Origin: Candidatus Moraniibacteriota bacterium
GTDB lineage: Bacteria > Patescibacteriota > Minisyncoccia > Moranbacterales > UBA2206
DNA length: 64,000 nt
Direction: 5' to 3'
Assembly: GCA_049304095.1 (NCBI GenBank)
Contig: JBAQNU010000029.1
Coordinates: 34,222-98,221 of the forward strand
In this document: one piece after another, positions 1 through 52,670 of the stretch
Numbering within the stretch: position 1 is the first letter of the stretch
Layout: each line of letters opens with the position of its first letter
Notes under the pieces: generated by a model
Told to the model about the DNA's origin: nothing
Database searches by the model: none
Seen by the model: the letters and a program-made list of their open reading frames with translations, nothing else
Made by a program: the position numbers and the translations under genes

Positions 1-1
1 T

Positions 2-706
2 ATTCTCACATTAGCTGTCCGTTCACAAGAAATTTCCGGTTTAGGTTTTTTGGGTGTGGATGTGGCTATTGACAATGAGCGCGGTCCGGTCATTTTGGAA
101 CTTAATGCTCGACCAGGGCTTTCCATCCAAGTAGCTAATCTTGATGGCTTAAAAGGACGCTTGAGAAAAGCCGCTGGCATCAAAATTAAAACTCTCAAAA
201 AAGGCATTCGCGTCGGCATGGATCTTTTTGGTGGAGAAATCGAAGAAGAATTGGAAGAAATTTCCGGTAAAAAAGTGATTGGCACCGTGGAAAAAGTGAA
301 ACTCATCGGCAAGGATGGCAAAGAAATCGAGGTGGAAGCCAAAATTGATACGGGAGCCGGATTCTCATCGATTGACGAGAACTTAGCAATAAGCCTAGGT
401 TTCGCAGAGACAATTGAAAAATTCAAAGAGCAAGGCTTTCCTCAATTCTTATCCCAAGAAGACGCACGCAATCTGGATAAAGAAGAAAAAGATAAACTAT
501 TGAAAACAATTCCGGATTTAGCAGACACAGCCATTATCCATTCGTCCCATGGAACAACTTACCGGCCGATGATAAAAATAAATATCCTGATGGATAACCT
601 TGATGTTTTGGCAAAAGTATCCATCATCAACCGCTCTGATCTGAACTACCCAATTATTATCGGCAAAAGAAATCTGACTAAATTTTTAATTGATGTGAAC
701 AAATAA
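2..706 (+). CDS. 5'-truncated CDS: C-terminal end of a RimK-like ATP-grasp domain fused to a retropepsin-like (RimB/DUF785 'putative ATP-dependent zinc protease') domain
   Basis: The reading frame is open from window position 2. GPVILELNARPGLS is a typical RimK ATP-grasp C-terminal motif. It is followed by AKIDTGAGFSSID, a DTGA aspartic-protease-like signature as in RimK-associated protease domains. Confidence 0.6.
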   Translation: MLTLAVRSQEISGLGFLGVDVAIDNERGPVILELNARPGLSIQVANLDGLKGRLRKAAGIKIKTLKKGIRVGMDLFGGEIEEELEEISGKKVIGTVEKVKLIGKDGKEIEVEAKIDTGAGFSSIDENLAISLGFAETIEKFKEQGFPQFLSQEDARNLDKEEKDKLLKTIPDLADTAIIHSSHGTTYRPMIKINILMDNLDVLAKVSIINRSDLNYPIIIGKRNLTKFLIDVNK

Positions 707-1668
707 TGCTAAAAAATCAAACTATTATAAAAAAAGTTGTCCAGGAAATGGGCGGGACTATAGAAAGGATAATTCCCGAAAGAAGTTATTATTATATCAA
801 ACTAGGAGAAGAAAAAATATTTATCAATCAAAAATTCGTCATTAACAGCGACTTATTCTCCAGAAAACAACCAACTAACTTCAAAGACTTAACCTATGTA
901 TTTCTAAGGGATAATGACATTCCTACGCCCAATACGGTTTGTTTCTACAGAAAATCCCTGACCGAAGAAAAGATGGCGCAAGAACTTCAAAAGCTTTCCT
1001 ACCCCATTGTAATAAAAGACGCCAGTGGATCGTATAGTCTAGGTGTTTTTACTGATATAAAAGATCAGGAAGAGGCGAGAGAGGTTATTTTAAAAGAAAT
1101 AAAAAAATTTCCCTCTCTTATTGCCCAAGAGATGGTTTTTGGAAGAGAATATAGAATATTAGTCTTGGAAGACAGGATTATTGGTGCTCTGGAAATGATC
1201 CCTCCTAGAATTTTTGGAGATGGAGAAAAGACCACCAGAGAATTAATAGAAAATAAGCAAGAAAAAACAGAGAAAAGAACCCCGCTTGATACAATTCTTG
1301 TAGAGCTTTTGCAAAAACAAGCAGAGACGCTAACTAGCATACCAAAGAAAGGCAAGGAGATATGGCTAAGAACGAGCTCCTGCCTGGCTGAAGGAGGAGA
1401 AACAACTGATTCAACCGACATCATCAATGAGGATGTTAAAAAGCTCTGCATAAAGGCAGCCAGGGCTGTTGATAAAAAATTAGCTGGCCTGGATGTTATA
1501 TGTGACGACATAACAAAAAGTCCGCTAGAGCAAAAGATAAACATCATCGAAGCTAACCGCAGGCCTGATTTATATATACATTACAACCCTACTCATGGAA
1601 AAACTAGGGATGTGATAAAAAATATCATCGAATTTATCTTAAAACTAAAAAGGGATTCTAAAATTTAA
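706..1668 (+). CDS. ATP-grasp protein resembling the N/G (ATP-grasp) domain of cyanophycin synthetase CphA
   Basis: 320 aa ORF whose ATGA start overlaps the upstream stop. It carries an ATP-grasp core (KDASGSYSLGV, RIFGDGEKTTRELIE). The C-terminal IIEANRRPDLYIHYNPTHGKTRDV matches the CphA G-domain end pattern (V)IEVN..PG..MH..P..G.PRNV. Confidence 0.6.
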   Translation: MLKNQTIIKKVVQEMGGTIERIIPERSYYYIKLGEEKIFINQKFVINSDLFSRKQPTNFKDLTYVFLRDNDIPTPNTVCFYRKSLTEEKMAQELQKLSYPIVIKDASGSYSLGVFTDIKDQEEAREVILKEIKKFPSLIAQEMVFGREYRILVLEDRIIGALEMIPPRIFGDGEKTTRELIENKQEKTEKRTPLDTILVELLQKQAETLTSIPKKGKEIWLRTSSCLAEGGETTDSTDIINEDVKKLCIKAARAVDKKLAGLDVICDDITKSPLEQKINIIEANRRPDLYIHYNPTHGKTRDVIKNIIEFILKLKRDSKI

Positions 1669-1684
1669 ATTTAATCGAAAAACT

Positions 1685-2644
1685 ATGAAAAAAGTAATGA
1701 TACTTTTCGGCAAAAGCGATTGGAGAAAAGCTAAGCCTTTTTCCAATAAAGAGTATATGTATTCTTATGAATATTTTTATGACATCTGCAAAAAAGGAGG
1801 AATTCAAATGTATCGAGCCTCCTATGAATGGTATGATTATAAAAATCATATCTTTAGGCATGCCTGGATATTTGAAGGCAAGGGCGGAAAATGGAAGAAA
1901 GTTGATAATATTAAGCCTGATCTAATATATGACAAGACTAAGGCTAGGATGGAAGTATATTATAAAAAAGAGTTAATGAGAGAGCATTATCCGTTTATAA
2001 ATGATCTGAACTTCACTCAATTGATTGATGATAAACTCACAATAAGTCTATTGCTTGAAAGATGGTGCAAAAAAAACTGGGTCATAAATAACAAGGCTGA
2101 TTTGAAAAAATTTCTTCCTAACATAAAAACTTCCCTAGCCGTTCTGAAACCCATGATAGAGAGCGGTGGAAAAGGCATACAAATTCTGACCAAGAAAAAA
2201 CTTCTAGAAAAATCAACCATCGACCGCCCTTATATTCTTCAGGAGTTTGTAGATTCATCTTCCGGGGTGCCGGGTGTAAGTTATGGAATGCATGATCTTA
2301 GATTGGTTTTCGTGAACAATAAGATAATCTATACCTATATCCGTGAGCCTCAAAAAGACAGTTTTTTGGCTAATCTTTCCCAGGGCGGTCGCCTGTTTAT
2401 TGTTCCTAAAGATAAACTTCCGAAATCTCTGCGACCTATAATTAGTTACGCCAACAGGCTATTTAAAACTTTCGAACCCAGAATATATTCTATTGACCTC
2501 ATGTTTGATAAAAAAAAGCGTCCATGGATCGTTGAACTCAATTCGATGCCTGGTTTATTTTTTACTCCCGAGGAAAAACCCTATATGCTGGAAATGTACG
2601 CTTCTTTATTGGCTATCTTTAGGCAAAAACTAGAACTTAAGTAA
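1685..2644 (+). CDS. second ATP-grasp family protein (RimK/CphA-like)
   Basis: 319 aa ORF whose C-terminal IDLMFDKKKRPWIVELNSMPGLFF is the ATP-grasp closing motif. It sits between the CphA-G-like and Mur-ligase-like genes. Confidence 0.5.
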   Translation: MKKVMILFGKSDWRKAKPFSNKEYMYSYEYFYDICKKGGIQMYRASYEWYDYKNHIFRHAWIFEGKGGKWKKVDNIKPDLIYDKTKARMEVYYKKELMREHYPFINDLNFTQLIDDKLTISLLLERWCKKNWVINNKADLKKFLPNIKTSLAVLKPMIESGGKGIQILTKKKLLEKSTIDRPYILQEFVDSSSGVPGVSYGMHDLRLVFVNNKIIYTYIREPQKDSFLANLSQGGRLFIVPKDKLPKSLRPIISYANRLFKTFEPRIYSIDLMFDKKKRPWIVELNSMPGLFFTPEEKPYMLEMYASLLAIFRQKLELK

Positions 2645-2657
2645 TAAACATTCTTTT

Positions 2658-3923
2658 ATGAAAATAATTTCAATCACCGGAACAAAAGGAAAAACAACCA
2701 TCACAAGAGGGCTCAGCTATTTGATCAACAAGCTTGGAATCACAACTCTCCGCGTCGATACTGATGGCCACTATATCAACGAAAAGCAAAAAAGCACTCT
2801 TCGCGATAGCGCCGACTTTTTCCATTTGGTTCCAACGGTATGTCCCGGAAAATTTCTTTGGGAAATGAAAAAATTTCATCCAAACTTCACCGCCATACTT
2901 GAAACAGCCATCGGAAGTAGCAACCTTCCTGGATTGGGATATGGATATCACAATATTGGAATTTTTTCTAACGTTTTTGAGGATCATCTCGGTGCAACAA
3001 AAAGGCTCAAAAAGAGAAGTGATATTGCTAAGGCCAAGCGCTTTATATTTTCCGAAGTCAGCAAATACGGTTATCTAATTTTTAACGCCGATGATAAGCT
3101 GGTTTGTTCACAGCTAAAATTTATCCCAAAAAGATTTATTGGAACACTTATTCCGGTTGGTTTTAATTTTAAATATTTTCCCCTGAAAAGCCACTTAGAT
3201 TCTGGTGGAATGGCTATTTCAAAAAAAGATGATTATCTCATTTTAAAAACTAAGACGACCATAAAAAAAATTCTTAACCTGAAAAATATCCGCTGGACAT
3301 TTGAAGGAAACTATTTGCCCTCAATTTATAATTTAATGTTTATTATCGGAGGAATATACGCTCATCAGGATAAAAGAATACCTAAAAATTTAACTGCGCT
3401 GTTAGAAAAATATACCCTAGACGAGCAGGGTGGAAGACTAACGTTGTTTGAAAACAAAAAAGGAGTAAAAATAATTCTCGATTTTGCCCATGAAAAATAT
3501 TCCTTAAGAGAAATTGGAAAATTAGCTAAAAAAATAACTACCAAAGGAAAAGCTGTCGGAGTTTTGCGACTTTCTCCCGACAGAACCGATGAGATGATTA
3601 TCAATACGGGCGAGTTTATTGCCCAAAATTATGACTATCTACTTATTTATGACAAAATTGACGGTGTAAATAAAAAAACTCATAAGGGCTCTGGGAATAT
3701 TCCTTCTCGAAAAATAGGGGAGGTTTCCAGCCTTTTTCTTAAAGGAATTTTGCGATCAAAAAAACGCGGGGTGGCGGAAAGAATTATTCTCGAAAAATCT
3801 GCCATAGAAAAAGCCTCAAAAATAGTAACGCCTGGAGATGTTGTTGTTGTTATATCAGGGGAAAATCACAAAAAAACCATTGGTTATATAAAAAAATATT
3901 TCGAAGCCAATTTGGCAAAGTAA
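2658..3923 (+). CDS. Mur ligase family protein resembling the M domain of cyanophycin synthetase
   Basis: ITGTKGKTTITR is a Mur-ligase P-loop. VDTDGHYI, AILETAIGSSNLPGLGY and NVFEDHLG parallel the CphA M-domain motifs TTTDGIYI, AVLETARGG..GLGF and NVAADHLG. Confidence 0.65.
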   Translation: MKIISITGTKGKTTITRGLSYLINKLGITTLRVDTDGHYINEKQKSTLRDSADFFHLVPTVCPGKFLWEMKKFHPNFTAILETAIGSSNLPGLGYGYHNIGIFSNVFEDHLGATKRLKKRSDIAKAKRFIFSEVSKYGYLIFNADDKLVCSQLKFIPKRFIGTLIPVGFNFKYFPLKSHLDSGGMAISKKDDYLILKTKTTIKKILNLKNIRWTFEGNYLPSIYNLMFIIGGIYAHQDKRIPKNLTALLEKYTLDEQGGRLTLFENKKGVKIILDFAHEKYSLREIGKLAKKITTKGKAVGVLRLSPDRTDEMIINTGEFIAQNYDYLLIYDKIDGVNKKTHKGSGNIPSRKIGEVSSLFLKGILRSKKRGVAERIILEKSAIEKASKIVTPGDVVVVISGENHKKTIGYIKKYFEANLAK

Positions 3924-3988
3924 TCCCTTGATACTCCCCCCAAAAAATGCTAAACTGCGTATTAGCTAATTAGTTTAGAATTAGTTTT

Positions 3989-6571
3989 ATGCAAAATATC
4001 GTATCTCCCAAGCTTCCTTCCCAGTTTAAGCCAAAAAAACGACATTGGTTCTCGGGAAAGTGGAATTGGAAATTGATTTTCAAGTTTTTTGGCATTGGCG
4101 CAGGCGTTGTTTTTCTGTTCGTTATTAGTGTTTTCGCCTATTTCTACAAGGATCTCCCTAATCCCAACAACCTCAATAATCGCTTCATTGCCGAATCAAC
4201 CAAAATCTATGACCGCACCGGCGAGCATTTGCTCTATGATGTGCATGGCGAAGAAAAACGCACTCAAATTCCCTTCTCTGAAATGCCTGATGTGCTTAAA
4301 TTTGCCACAATCGCCCTGGAAGACCAAGGTTTCTATTCTCATCATGGCATTGAGCTGAGCGCTATCGTCCGCGCCGTTTTGAAAGATATTCTGCATCGTG
4401 GTGTTGCGCAAGGCGCATCAACCATCACTCAGCAACTCATCAAGCAATCCGTGCTTTCCCCGGAAAAAACCATTTCGCGCAAAGTCAAAGAAGTAATTCT
4501 TTCACTAGAACTGGAAAGAAAATTTTCCAAAGATGAAATTTTGGCGATGTACCTCAATCAGATTCCCTATGGCTCCAATGCCTATGGGGCCGAATCTGCC
4601 GCGCGAACTTTTTTTAGCAAAGCCGCCAAAGACCTCACTCTCGACGAATCGGCCCTGCTCGCCGCTCTGCCTCAAGCTCCATCATATTATTCCCCCTATG
4701 GTAGCCACACGGACGCCCTAAAGGGTCGCCAGGAATACGCACTTACTCAACTAGCAAAGCTGGGTTATATCTCACAAGAAAAAGCTGATGAGGCCAAACA
4801 AGTGGACGTTCTTTCTAAGATAAAAAGACCATCGGAAAACATTTCTGCCCCACATTTTGTGATGTATATTAAAGAATATTTAGAAAAAAAGTATGGTGGT
4901 GATGCAGTTGAACAGAGTGGTCTCAAGGTCTACACCACGCTCGATTGGGACAAACAAATGGCCGCTGAAAAAGCCGTGCGTGAAGGCGCAGAAAAAAACG
5001 CCAAAATCTATGGCGCCGGCAATGCCGCGCTTGTAGCAATGGACCCGAAAACCGGACAAATTCTCGCAATGGTGGGTAGCAAAGACTATTTCAAAGAAAG
5101 CGAGCCAAAAGGTTGCTCTTCCGGAAAAAATTGTGTCTTTGAGCCAAATGTTAATGTCGCGACATCACTCCTGCAACCAGGCTCATCCTTTAAACCCTAT
5201 GTCTATCTCACCGCTTTTGAAAAAGGCTACACACCAGAAACTAATCTTTGGGATGTAGACACTAATTTCAGCACAGATGATGGAAAAATTTATGATCCCA
5301 AAAACTATGACGGAAAAAATTCTGGACTTCTGCAGATGAAAGACTCCCTCGCCCGCTCGCTTAATGTTCCAGCCGTCAAAACCCTCTATTTGGCTGGCGT
5401 AAAAGAATCGATCGAAACAGCCAAAAAGATGGGCATCACTACGCTCAATGAGCCGGATCGCTATGGACTATCACTTGTTTTGGGTGGCGGCGAAGTAAAG
5501 TTACTTGACCATGTCAATGCCTTTTCCACCTTTGCTACCGGCGGAATCCAACATCCCACTGCATCCATCCTACGCATTGAGGATAATAAAGGCACTGTCT
5601 TGGAAAAATATACGCCAAAAACGGGCGAGCAAGTGATTGAAGAAAAATATATCGCCATGATTGATTATATTCTTTCCACCAACGCTCTACGCGCTCCGGT
5701 TTTTGGCGATAAAAATCCCTTGAGTTTTACTGACCGCCCAGTGGCTGCCAAAACCGGCACAACCAACGAATGGCGTGATGGTTGGACAATGGGCTACACG
5801 CCGTCTCTGGCTGTCGGAGTTTGGGCAGGCAACAATGATCATTCCATCATGAAACAAGGTGCGGATGGTGTTTTTGTGGCCGCTCCGATTTGGCGTAGTT
5901 TTATGGATCAAACGCTTTCCAACTACAATATTGAACAGTTTCCTAAATATGAACCAGAAGAAACCGGAAAAGCCGTCCTTGATGGAAAATTAGAAATGAA
6001 AAAAGAATTAAAGGTCTGCAAAATTCCCGGCTCCAAAAATGATTATTGCCTCGCCTCTTCTGCTTGCCCTGATGATGAGGTGGAAAAAAAGAAATTTTCC
6101 GATTCGCATAGTATTCTCTATTATGTCAATAAAGATGATCCACGCGGAGATCCACCCAAAAATCCCGAGGATGAACCACAATTTAAAAATTGGGAAAAAG
6201 CTATTAAGGATTGGTTGAAAAGTAATAAGGATTCTGCCAATGCCGCTCCTACGGAGGATTGCACCGACAAGGATTTTTCAAAATATGAAATCAGTATTGA
6301 CAACATTTCCGCTTCCGGCGGAAATCCAATCACCTCCTCCTCTTTTGATATTTCGGTTAAAATCTCCGCTCCTTTCGGCGTTAAAAAAGCCACCATCAGT
6401 GTTGACGGAAAAGAGATTTCTTCTAACGGCTCCGACTCCTTTAGCACCTCCTATTCCGTTCCGGATGACAAGAAAAAATCCACACTAACAATCAAAGTTG
6501 AGGCGGAAGATGACAAGGGTAACTCCGATTCGGATTCAATCAAAGTCGACACTAATATTCCGACGACGTAA
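3989..6571 (+). CDS. class A penicillin-binding protein (PBP1A, bifunctional transglycosylase/transpeptidase) with a C-terminal extension
   Basis: N-terminal TM anchor and GT51 motifs (ALEDQGFYSHHGIE, TITQQL). Transpeptidase motifs SSFKP (SxxK) and KTGTT. Confidence 0.9.
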   Translation: MQNIVSPKLPSQFKPKKRHWFSGKWNWKLIFKFFGIGAGVVFLFVISVFAYFYKDLPNPNNLNNRFIAESTKIYDRTGEHLLYDVHGEEKRTQIPFSEMPDVLKFATIALEDQGFYSHHGIELSAIVRAVLKDILHRGVAQGASTITQQLIKQSVLSPEKTISRKVKEVILSLELERKFSKDEILAMYLNQIPYGSNAYGAESAARTFFSKAAKDLTLDESALLAALPQAPSYYSPYGSHTDALKGRQEYALTQLAKLGYISQEKADEAKQVDVLSKIKRPSENISAPHFVMYIKEYLEKKYGGDAVEQSGLKVYTTLDWDKQMAAEKAVREGAEKNAKIYGAGNAALVAMDPKTGQILAMVGSKDYFKESEPKGCSSGKNCVFEPNVNVATSLLQPGSSFKPYVYLTAFEKGYTPETNLWDVDTNFSTDDGKIYDPKNYDGKNSGLLQMKDSLARSLNVPAVKTLYLAGVKESIETAKKMGITTLNEPDRYGLSLVLGGGEVKLLDHVNAFSTFATGGIQHPTASILRIEDNKGTVLEKYTPKTGEQVIEEKYIAMIDYILSTNALRAPVFGDKNPLSFTDRPVAAKTGTTNEWRDGWTMGYTPSLAVGVWAGNNDHSIMKQGADGVFVAAPIWRSFMDQTLSNYNIEQFPKYEPEETGKAVLDGKLEMKKELKVCKIPGSKNDYCLASSACPDDEVEKKKFSDSHSILYYVNKDDPRGDPPKNPEDEPQFKNWEKAIKDWLKSNKDSANAAPTEDCTDKDFSKYEISIDNISASGGNPITSSSFDISVKISAPFGVKKATISVDGKEISSNGSDSFSTSYSVPDDKKKSTLTIKVEAEDDKGNSDSDSIKVDTNIPTT

Positions 6572-6590
6572 AAAGTTTAGACCTTGCGCT

Positions 6591-6626
6591 AAAAAACAGT
6601 CCTGGAAATCGGGACTGTTTTTTGTG
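6591..6626. terminator. bidirectional rho-independent terminator between the convergent PBP1A and fic genes
   Basis: aaaaaACAGTCCtggaaatcgGGACTGTtttttg: an 8-bp stem flanked by an A-run and a T-run. Confidence 0.55.
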
Positions 6627-6640
6627 TTGCTAGTAAATTC

Positions 6641-7972
6641 TTAAAATAATTCTTTTATTTTTTCTGCACCATAATAAAACACTTCTCTTCCAATTTTTTT
6701 TGAAAAAAGAAATTTATTGTTTTCAAGATATTTTAAGTCATTAAAGGCAGTCATCCTTGAAATATCATTAATACTCATGTGCGCCCGAATGGCGGTTCTT
6801 CCGTCTGGATTGTCACACAAATATTGAAGAAGTTTTATTTGCCTATCATTAAGCTCGTGCTTACTTTTAGCAATAGCCCCCATTTGAGAATTTTTCCTTG
6901 ACTGGTCACTTAAATAATCATCAAACTCTCTACGCGCCAATTCGATTTTTCTCGTATTATAATCAATGAAATAAGTAAGATCTTGCTCATCTTGTTCAGT
7001 ATACACATAGGCCTTAATATATTGAGCATGCGCCCTTTTTATTGTCCGAGAAATAGGCAAATACGCGAAAGCCCAATAATTTTTCTTCAACAAATACCAA
7101 TAAAACATAAGCCGTGCCAATCTTCCGTTTCCGTCCACAAATGGATGCAAATATCCAATCCAAAAATGGAGCATTATCGCTTTTATCACTGGGTGCAAAA
7201 AAGCCTCTTCCAAGTCATCATTCGCAAAGGCAATAAACCGCTCAATTTCAATCTTCACAAACTTTTCACTAGGTGGCTCATGATAAATTAGATTTTCTTC
7301 ATTAGCTACAATAATTTCATCGCTGTCCAGGCGTAAACGCCCCTGATCCCCTGGATTAACTTGGGTATTTTTGGTGATTATCCGGTGAAGCTCTAAAAGT
7401 AATGCTAAATCTAACTTCTTATTTTTATAGTCTTCCTCGATCAATTTGATCGCTTCGTAATTATTGACAATCATATGCTCTGAAATTGTCTTTGGTTTTT
7501 TCCCTTCTCGAAGCATCTGCTTAGCTAATTTTCTAGTTGTTACGGCGCCTTCTAACTGAGAAGACGCGATCGCCTCCTCCATGACACCTTTCGAGATAAA
7601 TTTGTATTTTGTTTTATCGTTTATGTCTTTGCTGAAGGAAAATAAATTTCCACCCATATTAAGATCAATTTCATGCAAAAATTTTTCCAACCTAGGCAAT
7701 TTTAACCATTTAAAGTTTTCTCCTGTTTCTGTCCTGATTGGACTCCTTGCGAATTGAGCCTCCCTTATTGTTTTCACAAGAAACCAAAATTCTTCGGCAG
7801 AGATTCCTAGTGGTAAGCTTTTGTATTTTACCTTATCCCAATATTGATAAACCGGCTCCATTGTCTCATCAATAAGTGGAAAAAGCTCTTCTTTCCTCTC
7901 TGAAATAAGCAATTTTATTGCTTTTTCCTTGTCAACATTTGATAAATCGGGTTTTTCTAGCTTATAATGCAT
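6641..7972 (-). CDS. fic: Fic/DOC family protein (class II Fic with an internal inhibitory motif)
   Basis: Canonical Fic motif HPFVDGNGRLARLM. An SxxxEG-type inhibitory motif (SSQLEG) lies N-terminal. 443 aa. Confidence 0.9.
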   Translation of the reverse strand: MHYKLEKPDLSNVDKEKAIKLLISERKEELFPLIDETMEPVYQYWDKVKYKSLPLGISAEEFWFLVKTIREAQFARSPIRTETGENFKWLKLPRLEKFLHEIDLNMGGNLFSFSKDINDKTKYKFISKGVMEEAIASSQLEGAVTTRKLAKQMLREGKKPKTISEHMIVNNYEAIKLIEEDYKNKKLDLALLLELHRIITKNTQVNPGDQGRLRLDSDEIIVANEENLIYHEPPSEKFVKIEIERFIAFANDDLEEAFLHPVIKAIMLHFWIGYLHPFVDGNGRLARLMFYWYLLKKNYWAFAYLPISRTIKRAHAQYIKAYVYTEQDEQDLTYFIDYNTRKIELARREFDDYLSDQSRKNSQMGAIAKSKHELNDRQIKLLQYLCDNPDGRTAIRAHMSINDISRMTAFNDLKYLENNKFLFSKKIGREVFYYGAEKIKELF

Positions 7973-7993
7973 ATAATTTAGGATATATACAAC

Positions 7994-8074
7994 TTATACA
8001 TATATTATACACGTTCTATACATATTGTCAATACATGTATAATTTATACATATATTATACATATTCTATACACT
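7994..8074. repeat. two copies of a roughly 30-bp direct repeat (ttatacatatattatacaYRttctatacaY) at 7994-8024 and 8044-8074
   Basis: Read directly from the sequence: 2 mismatches, 50-bp period. The repeats overlap the fic promoter, and an atacatgtat palindrome lies between the copies. Confidence 0.7.
8004..8031 (-). promoter_or_regulatory. sigma70-like promoter of fic (TTGACA-N16-TATAAT on the minus strand)
   Basis: The reverse complement reads ttgacaATATGTATAGAACGTGtataat, about 32 nt upstream of the fic ATG. It is embedded in a roughly 30-bp direct repeat. Confidence 0.5.
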
Positions 8075-8159
8075 TCCATCTCCTAATACCCCTAATTAAT
8101 CTCTTATCCTCGGATTTGATTTTTCCTAAATTCTGCATTTTTTCTATTTCATCTCAATA

Positions 8160-8984
8160 TCAATTTTCCTCATACCTTCTAAAAAGATTCATTTTCCCCG
8201 TAGCATATCTTTTTGCTTTTTCTGTAATAATGACGAGTTGCTTGAACCGACCAACGACATCTTCCAAGTTACAATCTTCCTCCCCGCCAAGTTGAATCAT
8301 TATGTCGCGACTGCTTTCTTCTAAGTTTTCCAACGCCGACGCAACGTGTCCCAAACTGCGCGAATCCTCCCTGACCCCTCCAGTCATCGGCACGTCTTTT
8401 CCAAAGGCATCGACAGCTCCAACTATTTCAAGAATAGCTTGTCCAATCTCTTCCGGCTTAGCCCTTTTGCTTTGAATCATTTCTTCCAAGCTACTTGCCT
8501 TGGAATAAAGATAGCTTGCTACGCCAGGATGGATGATAGGCGTCAACTCATGTTCGTTTCTTGCACGCAAAGCTCTCGCCAAGCCAATGACTTGATCTGA
8601 AAAATTATATAATTTTATCTTTTCTAACGCCACTTCTGCCGGTGATTGTTTTTCAATCTCTCTCCCGTTTTCATTTTGCTTAGTCAATTCCTCTATTTCG
8701 GATAACTTTTCATTTGCCCCTGCCAAGCTTTCTTTTGCTAGCACAATACTCGGCGCGTTTTCAATTTCAGGCTCCGCGATGCCTAATTTTTCTCGGGCAG
8801 CTTTCAGTTCGGCTTTATTCTTTTCAATGACTTGCTCTGTTTGGGTTGCACTTTCAGCTAATTCTTGTTTTTTAGTCAGCAAAACTAACCCTGGATCTAA
8901 AATTTCCTCAGTCGCTTTTTCATCTGGAGTTTTTGGCATTTCTTCTGCTCCAGATTTATATTCTCCTTGATTATCTATGCTCAT
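8160..8984 (-). CDS. hypothetical coiled-coil-rich protein directly upstream of fic (same strand)
   Basis: 274 aa ORF rich in E/K/L/A with no recognisable motif. A 188-nt gap separates it from fic. Confidence 0.45.
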   Translation of the reverse strand: MSIDNQGEYKSGAEEMPKTPDEKATEEILDPGLVLLTKKQELAESATQTEQVIEKNKAELKAAREKLGIAEPEIENAPSIVLAKESLAGANEKLSEIEELTKQNENGREIEKQSPAEVALEKIKLYNFSDQVIGLARALRARNEHELTPIIHPGVASYLYSKASSLEEMIQSKRAKPEEIGQAILEIVGAVDAFGKDVPMTGGVREDSRSLGHVASALENLEESSRDIMIQLGGEEDCNLEDVVGRFKQLVIITEKAKRYATGKMNLFRRYEEN

Positions 8985-49272: not shown

Positions 49273-50889
49273 ATGCAAAAATTGACTAAATTTATCGAAC
49301 ATATTTTGGAAAAAAGAGTCAGTCCGGTGGCCTGGTTTTTTAATTTTTTGGGGATTGTTGTGGTGCGGTTATATCTCGATAAATTTATTGCACGAGCTCG
49401 CTCTCCCCTGTTTGATTTGATTATGGATTTGCATAATCTGCTCTTCTTTTTTTTGTCGTTTGCTCTTTTGTGGCTTGTTTTGACTCTAGTGCTCAAAAAG
49501 AAGCCTTTTGATCTGAGTTATTTGATGCTTTGGACAAGTCTGGCTATTATTTTTCCACCACTATTTGATTTGGCGCGCACCGGCGGAGAGGTTTTTTGGA
49601 GCTTCTATCTGCTTAGTTCTCCGCAGGACCTATTTTTGGAATATTTGACATTTTTTGGCCATCTTCCTTCAGGAATAGTGTATTTTGGCACCAGGATAAC
49701 TGCACTGGCAGGAGTATTTTTTCTAACGCTTCTAGTTTGGGTAAAAACTAAAAAAGTTTCTCGCTCACTGCTCACACTTATTGGGACATATTCCGGGTTA
49801 TTTCTGATGGCCGCTTTCCCCTCGCTGTTTTTCTATCTGGTCACTTTTTTGGAAAAAAAGAGCTTGCTTGCGGTTCAGTCTTTTCAAATTATTCAATTTT
49901 TTTCGCAAACGAAAAATTTCGGCATTAAATTGGTTGATCCGACCTATGCCTTGGCCGCCAATTTGAATCTGATCTATTTCCTGCTTATTTTCATTTTATT
50001 GAGCTATTTTTTTTGGAAATCAGAGGCAAAAGTATTTTGGTCGGTGGCGCGAAATTTGCGTTATCCGCAAATCTTTTTCCACTGCGGACTGTTGTTTTTT
50101 GGCTTGGGGATTGGAGCACTCGCCTATCCGGAAAACTTTAATCTTAATTTGTTTTCTATTTTAGCAATTTTGGTGATTTGGCTCAGTGTGTTTTTGGCTT
50201 GGGAAGCATCGGTGGTGGTAAATGATATTTTTGATTATTGGGTGGATTTGATTTCCAACAGGGAGCGACCTTTGCAGGTTGGTCTTTTCACAGTCGAAAA
50301 GTATGCTCAATTTGGTGCAATACTTTTCTTTCTTTCTTTTATTGGCGGGATGCTGGTGCATTACAAATTAGGCATATTGCTCATCGTCTATCAAATTCTC
50401 GCTTGGTTCTATTCGGCGGAGCCATATCGCTTGAAGCGTTTTCCTGTCATTGCCTCTTTTCTAAGTGCTGCAACGTTGCTCACAGTCTTTTTTGCGGGTT
50501 TTATTTTTTTCTCCCCGACGCAAAATCTGGATCATTTGCCATGGCGAATTGTTTTTCTGCTTCTTATTGCCTATACCCTATCTTTGCCGATTAAGGATTT
50601 CAAAGATATCGCCGGAGATAAAAAAGATGGTGTGTGGACAATTCCTGTAATCTTTGGTGAGGAGAAGGGGCGCTTAATTGTTGGCGCAGGAATCTTTATT
50701 TCCTATGTGTTGAGCATTTTTTTCATCAATGAAATGCGCCTATTTTGGTGGGCGATTATTTTTGGCTCGCTTTCTTTTTTGGTTATGAATAATAAAAAAA
50801 TCCACCCCAGAAGTGTTTTTTGGTGGATTTTGCCGTTGGTTACGATTTATGGTTTTATTGCTGTAGGGATTATTTTTTTCTCTGCTTAA
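49273..50889 (+). CDS. UbiA-family prenyltransferase domain fused to a roughly 270-aa N-terminal polytopic membrane extension
   Basis: NDIFDYWVDLISNRERPLQ is the UbiA NDxxDxxxD...RPL motif. KDFKDIAGDKKDG is the second Asp-rich motif. 538 aa. Confidence 0.65.
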   Translation: MQKLTKFIEHILEKRVSPVAWFFNFLGIVVVRLYLDKFIARARSPLFDLIMDLHNLLFFFLSFALLWLVLTLVLKKKPFDLSYLMLWTSLAIIFPPLFDLARTGGEVFWSFYLLSSPQDLFLEYLTFFGHLPSGIVYFGTRITALAGVFFLTLLVWVKTKKVSRSLLTLIGTYSGLFLMAAFPSLFFYLVTFLEKKSLLAVQSFQIIQFFSQTKNFGIKLVDPTYALAANLNLIYFLLIFILLSYFFWKSEAKVFWSVARNLRYPQIFFHCGLLFFGLGIGALAYPENFNLNLFSILAILVIWLSVFLAWEASVVVNDIFDYWVDLISNRERPLQVGLFTVEKYAQFGAILFFLSFIGGMLVHYKLGILLIVYQILAWFYSAEPYRLKRFPVIASFLSAATLLTVFFAGFIFFSPTQNLDHLPWRIVFLLLIAYTLSLPIKDFKDIAGDKKDGVWTIPVIFGEEKGRLIVGAGIFISYVLSIFFINEMRLFWWAIIFGSLSFLVMNNKKIHPRSVFWWILPLVTIYGFIAVGIIFFSA

Positions 50890-50977
50890 TTGACTTTTTA
50901 GCCGATTTGTGCGAGGATGTAAAGTCGAGAAAGGAAAATAAGCGATAACCAGCAACTTAAAAATTAGGAGGTGACGC

Positions 50978-51382
50978 ATGACTTGGCAGACAAAAGAAAG
51001 AAATAATCGGCTTGAGCAACAAAAAGTGCAAGAGATTTTAGAGACAGAAAACAGACGAAAGAAAGAAAAAGAAAATTATGGGAAGAATGTGGTTTTGGAT
51101 TTCTGGGATAATCTATTGAAAGCGAATAAGAAACTTCTTCCAGAAGTAGGAGCAAGGCTTACAAGCGAGCGAAGTTTGCAAGGGCTTGAACGCGAAATAG
51201 CTTGCGTGGAATACGAGAATGAAATCTTGATTTTCGAACCAACTGGAGGCGGTCAGCGTATCAGTTATTCTCATGAAAAAGAAGGGCTATGTATTGGGAA
51301 AAAACAAATAACCAAAAAACACATAGACCACATTCTGAGAAATATATGCACCGGGAAGTATTTTTATGCAGGGTTAGCTTAA
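50978..51382 (+). CDS. hypothetical protein
   Basis: aGGAGGtgacgcATG RBS. 134 aa with no motif recognised. Confidence 0.4.
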   Translation: MTWQTKERNNRLEQQKVQEILETENRRKKEKENYGKNVVLDFWDNLLKANKKLLPEVGARLTSERSLQGLEREIACVEYENEILIFEPTGGGQRISYSHEKEGLCIGKKQITKKHIDHILRNICTGKYFYAGLA

Positions 51383-51470
51383 TATCCCCTGCCTAGAGAT
51401 ATTTATTTTTATTTGTGTCTTGCAAAAAAAGGTAATGTCTAGATTCTAGATGTTACCTTTTTTCTTTTAT

Positions 51471-51880
51471 GTGTCATCCCCGCGAAGGCGGGGATCCAGG
51501 CACCACAAGGCTAATTATTATACAAAATCGAGAAATAAATCTCTCCACTTACTATTATCACTTTCAATTAATTTTATTTTCCAACTTCTGTTCCATTTCT
51601 TGAGTTGCTTTTCTCTGGCAATTGCGCTGACAATATCATTCGTCTGTTCAAAATAAACTAGAATTTTTGTTTTGTATTTTTTAGTAAATCCCTCTGCCAA
51701 TCCTTCTTTGTGCTGCCAGACTCTTTTTACTAAATCAGAAGTTACGCCAATATACAAAGTTCCGTTTTTCTCACTAGCTAGAATATATACGAAATAATCT
51801 TTAGTTCTCATTGTAATAATTCGTTTTTTCTTTATGTAAAAATGGAGGTGCCTGGATTCCCGCCTTCGCGGGAATGACAC
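51471..51880. mobile_element. candidate small mobile/selfish element: GIY-YIG nuclease gene bracketed by 34-bp terminal inverted repeats
   Basis: IR-L 51471-51504 is gtgtcatccccgcgaaggcggggatccaggcacc. The reverse complement of IR-R 51847-51880 is gtgtcattcccgcgaaggcgggaatccaggcacc. They match 32/34, and the two differences are a compensatory pair that preserves an internal hairpin. Confidence 0.4.
51518..51811 (-). CDS. GIY-YIG nuclease family protein
   Basis: YFVYILASEKNGTLYIGVTSDLVKRVWQH is the GIY-YIG motif. Start taken at MRTKDYF, because the N-terminal extension in the ORF track is translation of IR-R. Confidence 0.7.
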   Translation of the reverse strand: MRTKDYFVYILASEKNGTLYIGVTSDLVKRVWQHKEGLAEGFTKKYKTKILVYFEQTNDIVSAIAREKQLKKWNRSWKIKLIESDNSKWRDLFLDFV

Positions 51881-51887
51881 CGTTTTT

Positions 51888-52670
51888 TTATAATAATTCC
51901 ACCAACTTCTTCCAGTCGTCTAAGTTTAATTCTTGCGCTCGTTGGTTTGGTGTGATTCCAATTTGCTTTAATTTTTCTTCAATAATAGTTTTTTCTAATT
52001 GCAAGCTGGTGGAAAGATTATTGACCAGCGTTTTTCTTTTGGCAGAAAAACCGGCTTTGACAAGTTTGAAAAATTTTTGAGTGGTCTTTTTCTCTGCACG
52101 TTTTTCGTTTAGGTTTATTCTAATAACGGCGCTGTCTACTTCTGGCACAGGAAAAAAAGCCGTTTTTGGCACCGTAAAAAGCAGTTCCGGAGTGGCATAA
52201 TATTGCACAGACAAAGCCAGGATGCTCAGCTTTCCGGCTTTGGCACAGATTCTTTCAGCCACTTCTTTTTGTACCATAAGGATCATTTCTGTTGGCGGAT
52301 ATTTAGTTTCCAAAAACAAACGAATAATCGGTGAAGTAATATAATACGGAATATTGGCAATGACTTTGTATTTTGTAAAATTATTTTGTTTAATCAATTC
52401 CGGCAAATTAATTTCCAAAATATCAGCGTTGATAATATCCAGATTCTTAGTAGTCTTAAGTCTGTCATTTAATTTTTTGGCTAATTCTTTATCGATTTCG
52501 ATTGCTACAACTTTTTTGGCATACTTCGCTAATCTTTCTGTCAAAACACCTTCGCCTGGTCCGACTTCCAAAACAAAATCATCCGCGCTCAAATTAGCGG
52601 TCTTGATGATTTTATCCAAAACAGCTTTATCTCGAAGAAAATTTTGACCTAAAGATTTTTTTGGTTGCAT
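51888..52670 (-). CDS. rsmA: 16S rRNA (adenine1518/1519-N6)-dimethyltransferase
   Basis: SLGQNFL, EVGPGEGVLT and NIPYYITS are KsgA/RsmA signatures. Confidence 0.9.
   Translation of the reverse strand: MQPKKSLGQNFLRDKAVLDKIIKTANLSADDFVLEVGPGEGVLTERLAKYAKKVVAIEIDKELAKKLNDRLKTTKNLDIINADILEINLPELIKQNNFTKYKVIANIPYYITSPIIRLFLETKYPPTEMILMVQKEVAERICAKAGKLSILALSVQYYATPELLFTVPKTAFFPVPEVDSAVIRINLNEKRAEKKTTQKFFKLVKAGFSAKRKTLVNNLSTSLQLEKTIIEEKLKQIGITPNQRAQELNLDDWKKLVELL

Follow-up and report, generated by a model that had tools for sequence, protein, structure and literature searches.

Organization of the locus

The 64-kb stretch of DNA analysed here, referred to throughout as the window, comes from a Candidatus Moraniibacteriota (CPR) MAG. 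The features at the locus of interest are listed below with their coordinates and strand.

50882-51884, no strand assigned: lineage-specific insertion of 1,003 bp (orphan gene, terminator hairpin and cassette); a relative (L135) has 49 bp instead
50978-51382, forward: orphan ORF of 134 aa with an AGGAGG ribosome-binding site; no homologues, absent from relatives
51425-51463, forward: AT-rich, terminator-like hairpin that belongs to the orphan gene and lies directly outside the cassette (fold -12 kcal/mol, z -7.3)
51463-51471, forward: predicted Ssn cleavage zone just outside the cassette, placed by analogy with SsnA, which cuts a few nt 5' of the NTS (PMC11893778)
51471-51880, reverse: complete NTS-ssn-NTS cassette of 410 bp, defined by its similarity to cassettes at other loci
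51471-51504, forward: left arm (IR-L), ATCCCC allele, with an NTS-type hairpin core at 51472-51499 on the forward strand (TGTCATCCCCGCGAAGGCGGGGATCCAG)
51518-51811, reverse: ssn gene, encoding a single-domain GIY-YIG protein of 97 aa (PF01541, homology to Neisseria SsnA)
51812-51851, reverse: leader of 40 nt from the upstream NTS to the ATG, with a block in it that is conserved among cassettes (CATAAAGAAAAAACGAATTATT, from the cassette alignment)
51847-51880, reverse: right arm (IR-R), ATTCCC allele, with the NTS core at 51852-51879 read on the reverse strand (TGTCATTCCCGCGAAGGCGGGAATCCAG)
51880-51887, reverse: predicted Ssn cleavage zone from the cassette to the rsmA stop codon, on the same SsnA basis (PMC11893778)
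51888-52670, reverse: rsmA, the housekeeping neighbour (PF00398, E 3e-66); the cassette begins 8 nt past its stop codon

A preliminary description of the locus had placed a gene for a 97-aa GIY-YIG protein between inverted arms of 34 bp, 32 of them identical, and had located this unit between an orphan gene and rsmA; the repeat search, the PF01541 match and the positions of the two neighbours agree with it on each point. The arms are complementary at 32 of 34 positions (94%) across a spacer of 342 nt, and their motif occurs twice in the 64-kb window against 0.00 expected in shuffled sequences. Both differences between the arms fall in a single stem pair, one on each side of it: the left arm reads ATCCCCGC..GCGGGGAT where the right arm has ATTCCCGC..GCGGGAAT. 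Folded as single-stranded DNA, the left arm has a dG of -11.1 kcal/mol (z -3.6) and the right arm one of -12.0 kcal/mol (z -3.9). The right-arm core lies 40 nt upstream of the ssn start codon and the left-arm core 18 nt downstream of its stop codon; the 40-nt leader presumably holds the expression signals of ssn.

The GIY-YIG protein is the product of the sole ORF in the cassette. A 120-aa version of this ORF, starting at the GTG at 51880, adds residues beginning MSFPRRRESR, which are the hairpin in translation, as had been recognised earlier, and the close homologues are all 97 aa long with the N-terminus MRTKDYF. The one terminator-like site between 50800 and 52100 is the hairpin of the orphan gene, and Rfam at gathering thresholds finds no family anywhere in the 64-kb window. 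The orphan ORF itself has no Pfam match, and a search of 1.84 billion representative proteins returned the ORF itself and three weak matches.

The encoded protein belongs to the Ssn family

The 97-aa ORF matches the GIY-YIG domain PF01541 over residues 6-79 (E 9e-16), and the Pfam search reveals neither a second domain nor a DNA-binding extension; searches of NCBIfam, PADLOC and PHROGs give sub-threshold matches to the GIY motif only. There is no solved structure of an Ssn protein. WD40 proteins head the matches to solved structures, which we reject as an artefact of summed weak repeats, each with E > 20.

The protein is 61% identical to the SsnA orthologue of Neisseria gonorrhoeae over 90 ungapped residues (E 3e-43); Chenal et al. 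(Nat Commun 2025, PMC11893778) took a blastp E < 1e-10 as their criterion for homologues. The Neisseria reference is a 94-aa ORF (L349, 2489-2773) from two N. gonorrhoeae chromosomes in PLSDB, and it is called an SsnA orthologue by its 94-aa length, its residues Y6, Y17 and E64 and the ten NTS copies around it, not by accession. The two chromosomes, NZ_CP119140.1 and NZ_CP119142.1 (2.17 Mb), are filed as plasmids in PLSDB in error. Flagging of DNA uptake sequences revealed no Neisseria Ssn among the genome and viral loci examined. Residues Y9, Y20 and E67 of the window's protein align with Neisseria Y6, Y17 and E64; in the alignment of homologues Y9 and E67 are invariant and Y20 is nearly so, with one His (P0012).

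SsnA of N. meningitidis is a 94-aa single-domain GIY-YIG protein and a site-specific endonuclease of ssDNA, which binds the NTS only as ssDNA and cuts the same strand a few nt upstream (PMC11893778). It is inactive on dsDNA, RNA and the complementary strand, its cutting is abolished by each of the substitutions Y6A, Y17A and E64A, and it modulates transformation in this species (PMC11893778). The Ssn family corresponds to CDD cd10448, and its members across bacteria carry flanking NTS/SRM repeats (PMC11893778). In an independent set of 65 homologue loci from metagenomes (60-73% identity, GC 33-67%), properly oriented NTS/SRM repeats lie on both sides of the gene at 24 loci, on one side at 25 and on neither at 16, so that 49 of the 65 loci have at least one such repeat.

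Among the cassette copies described below, dN/dS ranges from 0.08 to 0.18 at a dS of 0.47-1.24, and the non-coding hairpins are almost invariant. The nuclease gene evolves under purifying selection, and these values together with the near-invariant hairpins indicate that the nuclease and its sites are both constrained. Judged from its sequence, the feature is a member of the Ssn/NTS system. By analogy with SsnA, the 97-aa protein is expected to bind the 28-nt NTS exclusively in single-stranded form and to cleave that strand a few nt 5' of the hairpin.

The flanking hairpins are NTS/dRS3 repeats

The arms contain the neisserial dRS3 core and correspond to the 28-nt NTS of Chenal et al. (CGTCATTCCCGCGMAVGCGGGAATCYRG). 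Both match the SRM pattern and face inward, one on each side of ssn, and these two matches in 64 kb compare with 0.06 expected. Against the published NTS pattern the right arm has one mismatch and the left arm three. The CGTC-1/dRS3 class is defined by a CGTC or TGTC tag, an 8-bp stem starting with AT, a 4-nt loop and a CCA tail, with ATTCCC-N8-GGGAAT as its core. The right arm, TGTC-ATTCCCGC-GAAG-GCGGGAAT-CCAG, fits this pattern; the ATCCCC..GGGGAT allele of the left arm departs from the strict dRS3 core. In the survey of Di Nocera et al. (BMC Genomics 2013, PMC3733652), CGTC-1 REPs often have TGTC as their tag, occur mostly as head-to-head dimers and are in some cases located within genes, and no dedicated enzyme was found for the CGTC repeats.

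The preliminary description had proposed that the repeat be sought elsewhere, and it proves to be widespread. A scan of species-representative genomes with a 26-nt core, its loop left free, finds the repeat in at least 120 genome stretches from Proteobacteria, Chloroflexi, Planctomycetes, Desulfobacterota, Nitrospirae, Bacteroidetes, several CPR groups and others, and the NTS motif occurs in at least 120 stretches of viral contigs. Among the matches listed the repeat is found both solo and in head-to-head pairs, with 23 close pairs in the head-to-head ('+ then -') arrangement against 1-2 in the opposite one ('- then +'). Over 157 copies among these matches, cCGTCATTCCCGCGAAGGCGGGAATCCAG is the conserved unit, set in unrelated flanks. 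The two stem positions that vary read T..A in 137 of these listed copies and C..G in the other 20, and no copy is mixed. The compensatory change in the window, from which selection on the hairpin had been argued earlier, is therefore the difference between two widespread hairpin alleles, and the absence of mixed copies upholds the claim that the pairing is under selection.

Several observations on the distribution of the repeat and of ssn may be recorded here. An Ssn homologue is encoded in 7 of the 120 listed IMG/VR loci with an NTS (L223, L249, L268, L292, L315, L324 and L325, from L222-L341), and in curated phage genomes the Ssn matches are distant only (~33% identity) and all from Rhizobium phages. 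One exact NTS match (L054) lies in a MAG labelled Nanoarchaeota and may be either mis-binned CPR DNA or a real archaeal copy. In the Ssn cassette of L195 the NTS, at 89-116 (+) and 403-430 (-), is a variant in which a further stem pair is compensated (ATTCCTGC..GCAGGAAT); some 2.5 kb from this cassette, at ~2877-3398, lies a weak RAYT-like ORF (Y1_Tnp E 0.006, HIH motif), which is preceded by hairpin repeats of its own that are unrelated to NTS. Finally, a Logan contig with an identical rsmA (L001) ends inside the right-arm hairpin (4978-5006), consistent with a break in the assembly graph at a sequence common to several cassettes in the sample.

Complete cassettes lie at different loci in related genomes

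The closest homologues of the window's protein (77-86%) are encoded at gatB/miaA, between glycosyltransferase and recG genes, at ychF/rpsF and between solute-binding protein and T4SS pilin genes; a homologue with 71% identity is flanked by alaS and a pgi-like gene. Four complete cassettes from Moraniibacteriota (the window, L122, L125 and L129) occupy four loci with an identical geometry of NTS, 40 nt, gene, 18 nt and inverted NTS, and the DNA of the other three is 88.9% (L122), 85.8% (L125) and 85.1% (L129) identical to that of the window. Similarity between the cassettes runs from GTGTCAT to ATGACAC, which are the outer edges of the hairpins, and the flanks are unrelated. The two ends differ in allele, with ATTCCC..GGGAAT upstream of the gene and ATCCCC..GGGGAT downstream of it, in the window, L125, L129, L134 and L115; the cassette of L122 has one allele at both ends. 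The Ssn of L115 is 57% identical to that of the window, and among the matches listed this is one of two loci from the genome collection with ssn beside the motif.

The 64-kb window holds one cassette and no solo NTS, and thus gives no sign of proliferation in its genome. A candidate second cassette in the same genome (P0044) was rejected; the protein comes from another MAG. With a dS of up to 1.2 the cassette copies are old relative to each other, and movement may be rare or ancient.

Occupied and empty sites

Relatives of the window's genome, in which the preliminary description had suggested looking for empty sites, provide them at two junctions. At 71-91% DNA identity, these relatives represent other species rather than variants within one population. 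At rsmA/UbiA, L135 is collinear with the window at ~91% DNA identity, its positions 1-4855 corresponding to window 56664-51885 and its positions 4905-8851 to window 50881-46936; the intervening 49 bp of L135 face the 1,003-bp insertion of the window. In L137 and L138, which are more distant than L135, rsmA directly abuts UbiA and the cassette is absent. The orphan ORF is missing from all three relatives and, to judge from this comparison, was inserted with the cassette or beside it; it may or may not be cargo of the element. Since the 1,003-bp insertion includes this unrelated gene, its history is not a simple one-step insertion of the cassette.

At gatB/miaA, L122 is occupied; L343, which shares its samples of origin and is 84-94% identical to it in the flanks, has a spacer of 89 nt. 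In L346 the junction carries an unrelated gene for a 191-aa hypothetical protein and no cassette (L346-L348 come from the same sequencing run as L001). These three states mark the gatB/miaA junction as a variable spot. The cassette of L122 lies within the last codons of miaA (4298-5272, reverse strand), whose product ends in RVIPAKAGIQAPQG, the hairpin in translation, versus KKFLDL.

Neither rsmA/UbiA nor gatB/miaA, where the flanks are AT-rich and diverged, shows an evident target-site duplication or footprint, and the 1-kb insertion of the window retains no convincing remnants of the 49-bp spacer of L135. Both empty sites, rsmA/UbiA in L135 and gatB/miaA, lack an NTS, and the cassette is therefore not simply homing into hairpins that were already there.

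The rsmA gene has a repeat history of its own. A solo NTS lies in frame inside rsmA in L135 (4199-4226), L137 (2742-2769) and L138 (4208-4235), where it encodes LDSRLRGNDK and varies at the loop base only, a synonymous position of a Leu codon. The homologous stretch of the window (52445-52472) is identical at ~13 of 30 positions, versus ~27 of 30 in the neighbouring blocks, and its length is unchanged, which indicates that the hairpin in rsmA was erased in the lineage with the cassette beside rsmA. A second hairpin repeat forms a 54-nt in-frame insert in rsmA (alignment columns ~300-360), AAGACGCAGCAATGCTGCGTCTCTACA in L135 and AAGACGAGGCAATGCCTCGTCTCTACG in L138, with compensatory changes in its stem; it encodes QCCVST or QCLVST within a longer stretch and is absent from the window and L137. 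This repeat does not fit the SRM pattern; another nuclease-repeat pair may have its site here. L137 has a DUF6922/AbiEii-like gene pair (1671-2527) between a G5-domain gene and rsmA, a further sign of a neighbourhood that accepts insertions.

Proposed model and alternative explanations

We are confident that the locus consists of an Ssn-family gene with two cognate recognition hairpins, which together form a 410-bp cassette that has been inserted at different sites in related Moraniibacteriota. In the model that we propose, the two NTS copies, facing inward on opposite strands, would direct cuts just outside the cassette, one per strand; by analogy with SsnA these are predicted to the left of 51472 on the forward strand and to the right of 51879 on the reverse strand. 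Ssn would cut at the hairpins while the DNA is single-stranded, in replication or in DNA uptake. The cassette has been inserted as a unit at intergenic sites or at the 3' ends of genes, as at the present position downstream of rsmA, a junction that is empty in relatives. That repair or recombination by the host then completes the copy is a guess, which we offer with low confidence. GIY-YIG enzymes are hydrolytic nucleases, and we know of none that carries out strand transfer.

The preliminary description regarded the unit as a candidate minimal selfish element akin to hairpin-ended GIY-YIG mobile elements. All the checks it had suggested favour this view, which is upheld in part. Mobility is supported by the sequence comparisons as an insertion history (different loci, sharp boundaries and empty sites), not as a mechanism; hydrolytic GIY-YIG nucleases are not known to mobilise anything. 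Selfishness is unproven because the Neisseria nuclease has a host-level effect on transformation. The published Ssn/NTS system (PMC11893778) had gone unrecognised in that description. A host-level role as in Neisseria, the cutting of NTS-bearing ssDNA at uptake, appears equally possible and would be compatible with movement.

The host-level role leads to the strongest of the alternatives, a possibility that we take seriously and consider unlikely: ssn may be a domesticated, immobile gene that serves the cell, for example by restricting NTS-bearing ssDNA at uptake as in Neisseria, and the different loci would be old insertions followed by vertical descent and loss. The effect of SsnA on transformation in N. 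meningitidis (PMC11893778), the strong purifying selection and the high synonymous divergence among the copies all agree with such a gene; so does its single copy in the window. Domestication would be compatible with a mobile origin. Against immobility, presence and absence differ between genomes with 91% identical flanks, and with three successive outgroups that have no cassette at rsmA/UbiA, a gain in the lineage of the window is more parsimonious than three losses. In the occupied gatB/miaA allele, moreover, the C-terminus of MiaA is derived, its reading frame running on into the hairpin.

The inserted cassette of our preferred reading could also be more than that. NTS-ssn-NTS might be an autonomous mobile element with a hydrolytic GIY-YIG ssDNA nuclease as its only enzyme, and Ssn the missing mobiliser of the CGTC-tagged REPs; this extension is speculative and we advance it tentatively.

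It is improbable that the hairpin pair is REPIN-like and was moved in trans by a RAYT (an HUH Y1 transposase), with ssn as cargo or sitting inside a REP pair. Head-to-head doublets predominate among the matches listed, as they do in REPINs, and Bertels and Rainey (10.1101/2021.07.10.451892) assign the Neisseria repeat (ATTCCCGCGCAGGCGGGAATC, 241 copies) as REPINs of a Group 2 RAYT. However, Di Nocera et al. (PMC3733652) found no gene for a RAYT or another transposase flanked by CGTC repeats, and when the meningococcal proteome was screened without bias, ssnA emerged as the gene associated with the NTS (PMC11893778). Our own phmmer and tblastn searches find no RayT-like ORF in the window or in 240 listed NTS-centred loci, with a query that retrieves the Neisseria RAYT at E 2e-35. 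A frameshifted gonococcal RAYT (L351, NZ_CP119140.1 1073625-1077097) is directly flanked by hairpins of the GTCGGATTCGAGAATCCGAC type, not by NTS; the closest NTS lies upstream, ending ~210 nt before the RAYT start codon (~240 nt from the start of the NTS to the tblastn match). This arrangement suggests some tension with the published assignment of NTS-type REPINs to the gonococcal RAYT.

That the two hairpins are mere transcription terminators of convergent neighbours is very improbable: they are stable, GC-rich, intergenic and placed at the 3' ends of genes, but neither of them has a T-tract or is classed as terminator-like, the orphan gene is served by a canonical terminator of its own beside the cassette, the same 28 nt including the asymmetric unpaired flanks are conserved across phyla, and relatives carry the hairpin in frame within rsmA. 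The preliminary description had itself raised a terminator pair as the possible sole function, which these observations do not support.

A free-standing homing endonuclease of the phage or intron type is scarcely credible, since its weak matches (TIGR01453, 20.4 bits; PHROG 314/5123, E 3e-4 to 3e-3) cover the N-terminal GIY motif only and fall far under the cut-offs (56 bits for TIGR01453), and the protein is a single 97-aa domain with no DNA-binding extension, no intron or phage context and only distant matches (~33% identity) in the phage collection.

Comparison with known systems

The published Ssn/NTS system (PMC11893778) shares with the inserted cassette a single-domain GIY-YIG protein of ~95 aa (61% identity) with its catalytic residues, the 28-nt hairpin and the inward-facing NTS-gene-NTS arrangement; this IS-like layout was already described by Chenal et al. 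for NTS-ssnA-NTS (PMC11893778). The present case differs in its host, a member of the Moraniibacteriota (CPR), CPR/Patescibacteria being unmentioned in the main text of that paper; in having two flanking copies in 64 kb rather than hundreds; in its TGTC tag instead of CGTC; in the different stem alleles at its ends; and in the pairs of occupied and empty sites, which Chenal et al. do not report (PMC11893778). With the CGTC-1 REP/dRS3 repeats (PMC3733652) it has in common the CGTC/TGTC tag, the 8-bp stem starting with AT, the 4-nt loop, the CCA tail, head-to-head dimers and intragenic copies, whereas here the pair encloses an Ssn gene and its arms are 342 nt apart as against tens of nt.

As in the REP/REPIN-RAYT systems, a tetranucleotide gives the hairpin repeats their orientation, doublets are head-to-head and a small nuclease gene in single copy lies between inverted copies of its own repeat; in place of an HUH Y1 transposase the locus has a hydrolytic GIY-YIG enzyme, its tag is CGTC rather than GTAG, and no RAYT was found. 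IS200/IS605 elements are also minimal and have subterminal hairpins that are recognised as ssDNA. In those elements one strand carries both hairpins and the ends are joined through a covalent tyrosine intermediate, whereas the present hairpins are inverted and no joining activity is known for the nuclease. Terminal inverted repeats and occupied and empty sites are shared with autonomous insertion sequences, but no DDE, HUH, serine or tyrosine recombinase is present here and the sole ORF is GIY-YIG. The UPF0213/YhbQ proteins have a similar size and the GIY-YIG fold; the only similarity to this family is a weak match to the solved structure 1ywl (E 0.003), and we know of no flanking repeat in it.

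Significance

The Ssn/NTS system and its layout are already known, and as another instance of a system published in 2025 the locus changes little; its value is mainly comparative. What is added here are the sharp boundaries, the different loci, the pairs of occupied and empty sites and the selection on the nuclease. CPR genomes are small and poor in repeats, and in the present case the cassette appears as a clean 410-bp unit at different sites, with matched empty sites in relatives. Such pairs are a kind of evidence that the original paper did not have for its suggestion that NTS-ssnA-NTS is or was mobile (PMC11893778). The comparison also joins two literatures: the CGTC-tagged REPs were without a dedicated enzyme in 2013, and the Ssn nucleases now look like that enzyme, which makes them a concrete candidate for the spread of a pan-bacterial repeat family. 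If the tentative reading as an autonomous element were true, Ssn would be to the CGTC REPs what RAYT is to the GTAG REPs, and the cassette would represent a class of transposable elements outside the DDE, HUH and serine/tyrosine recombinase types.
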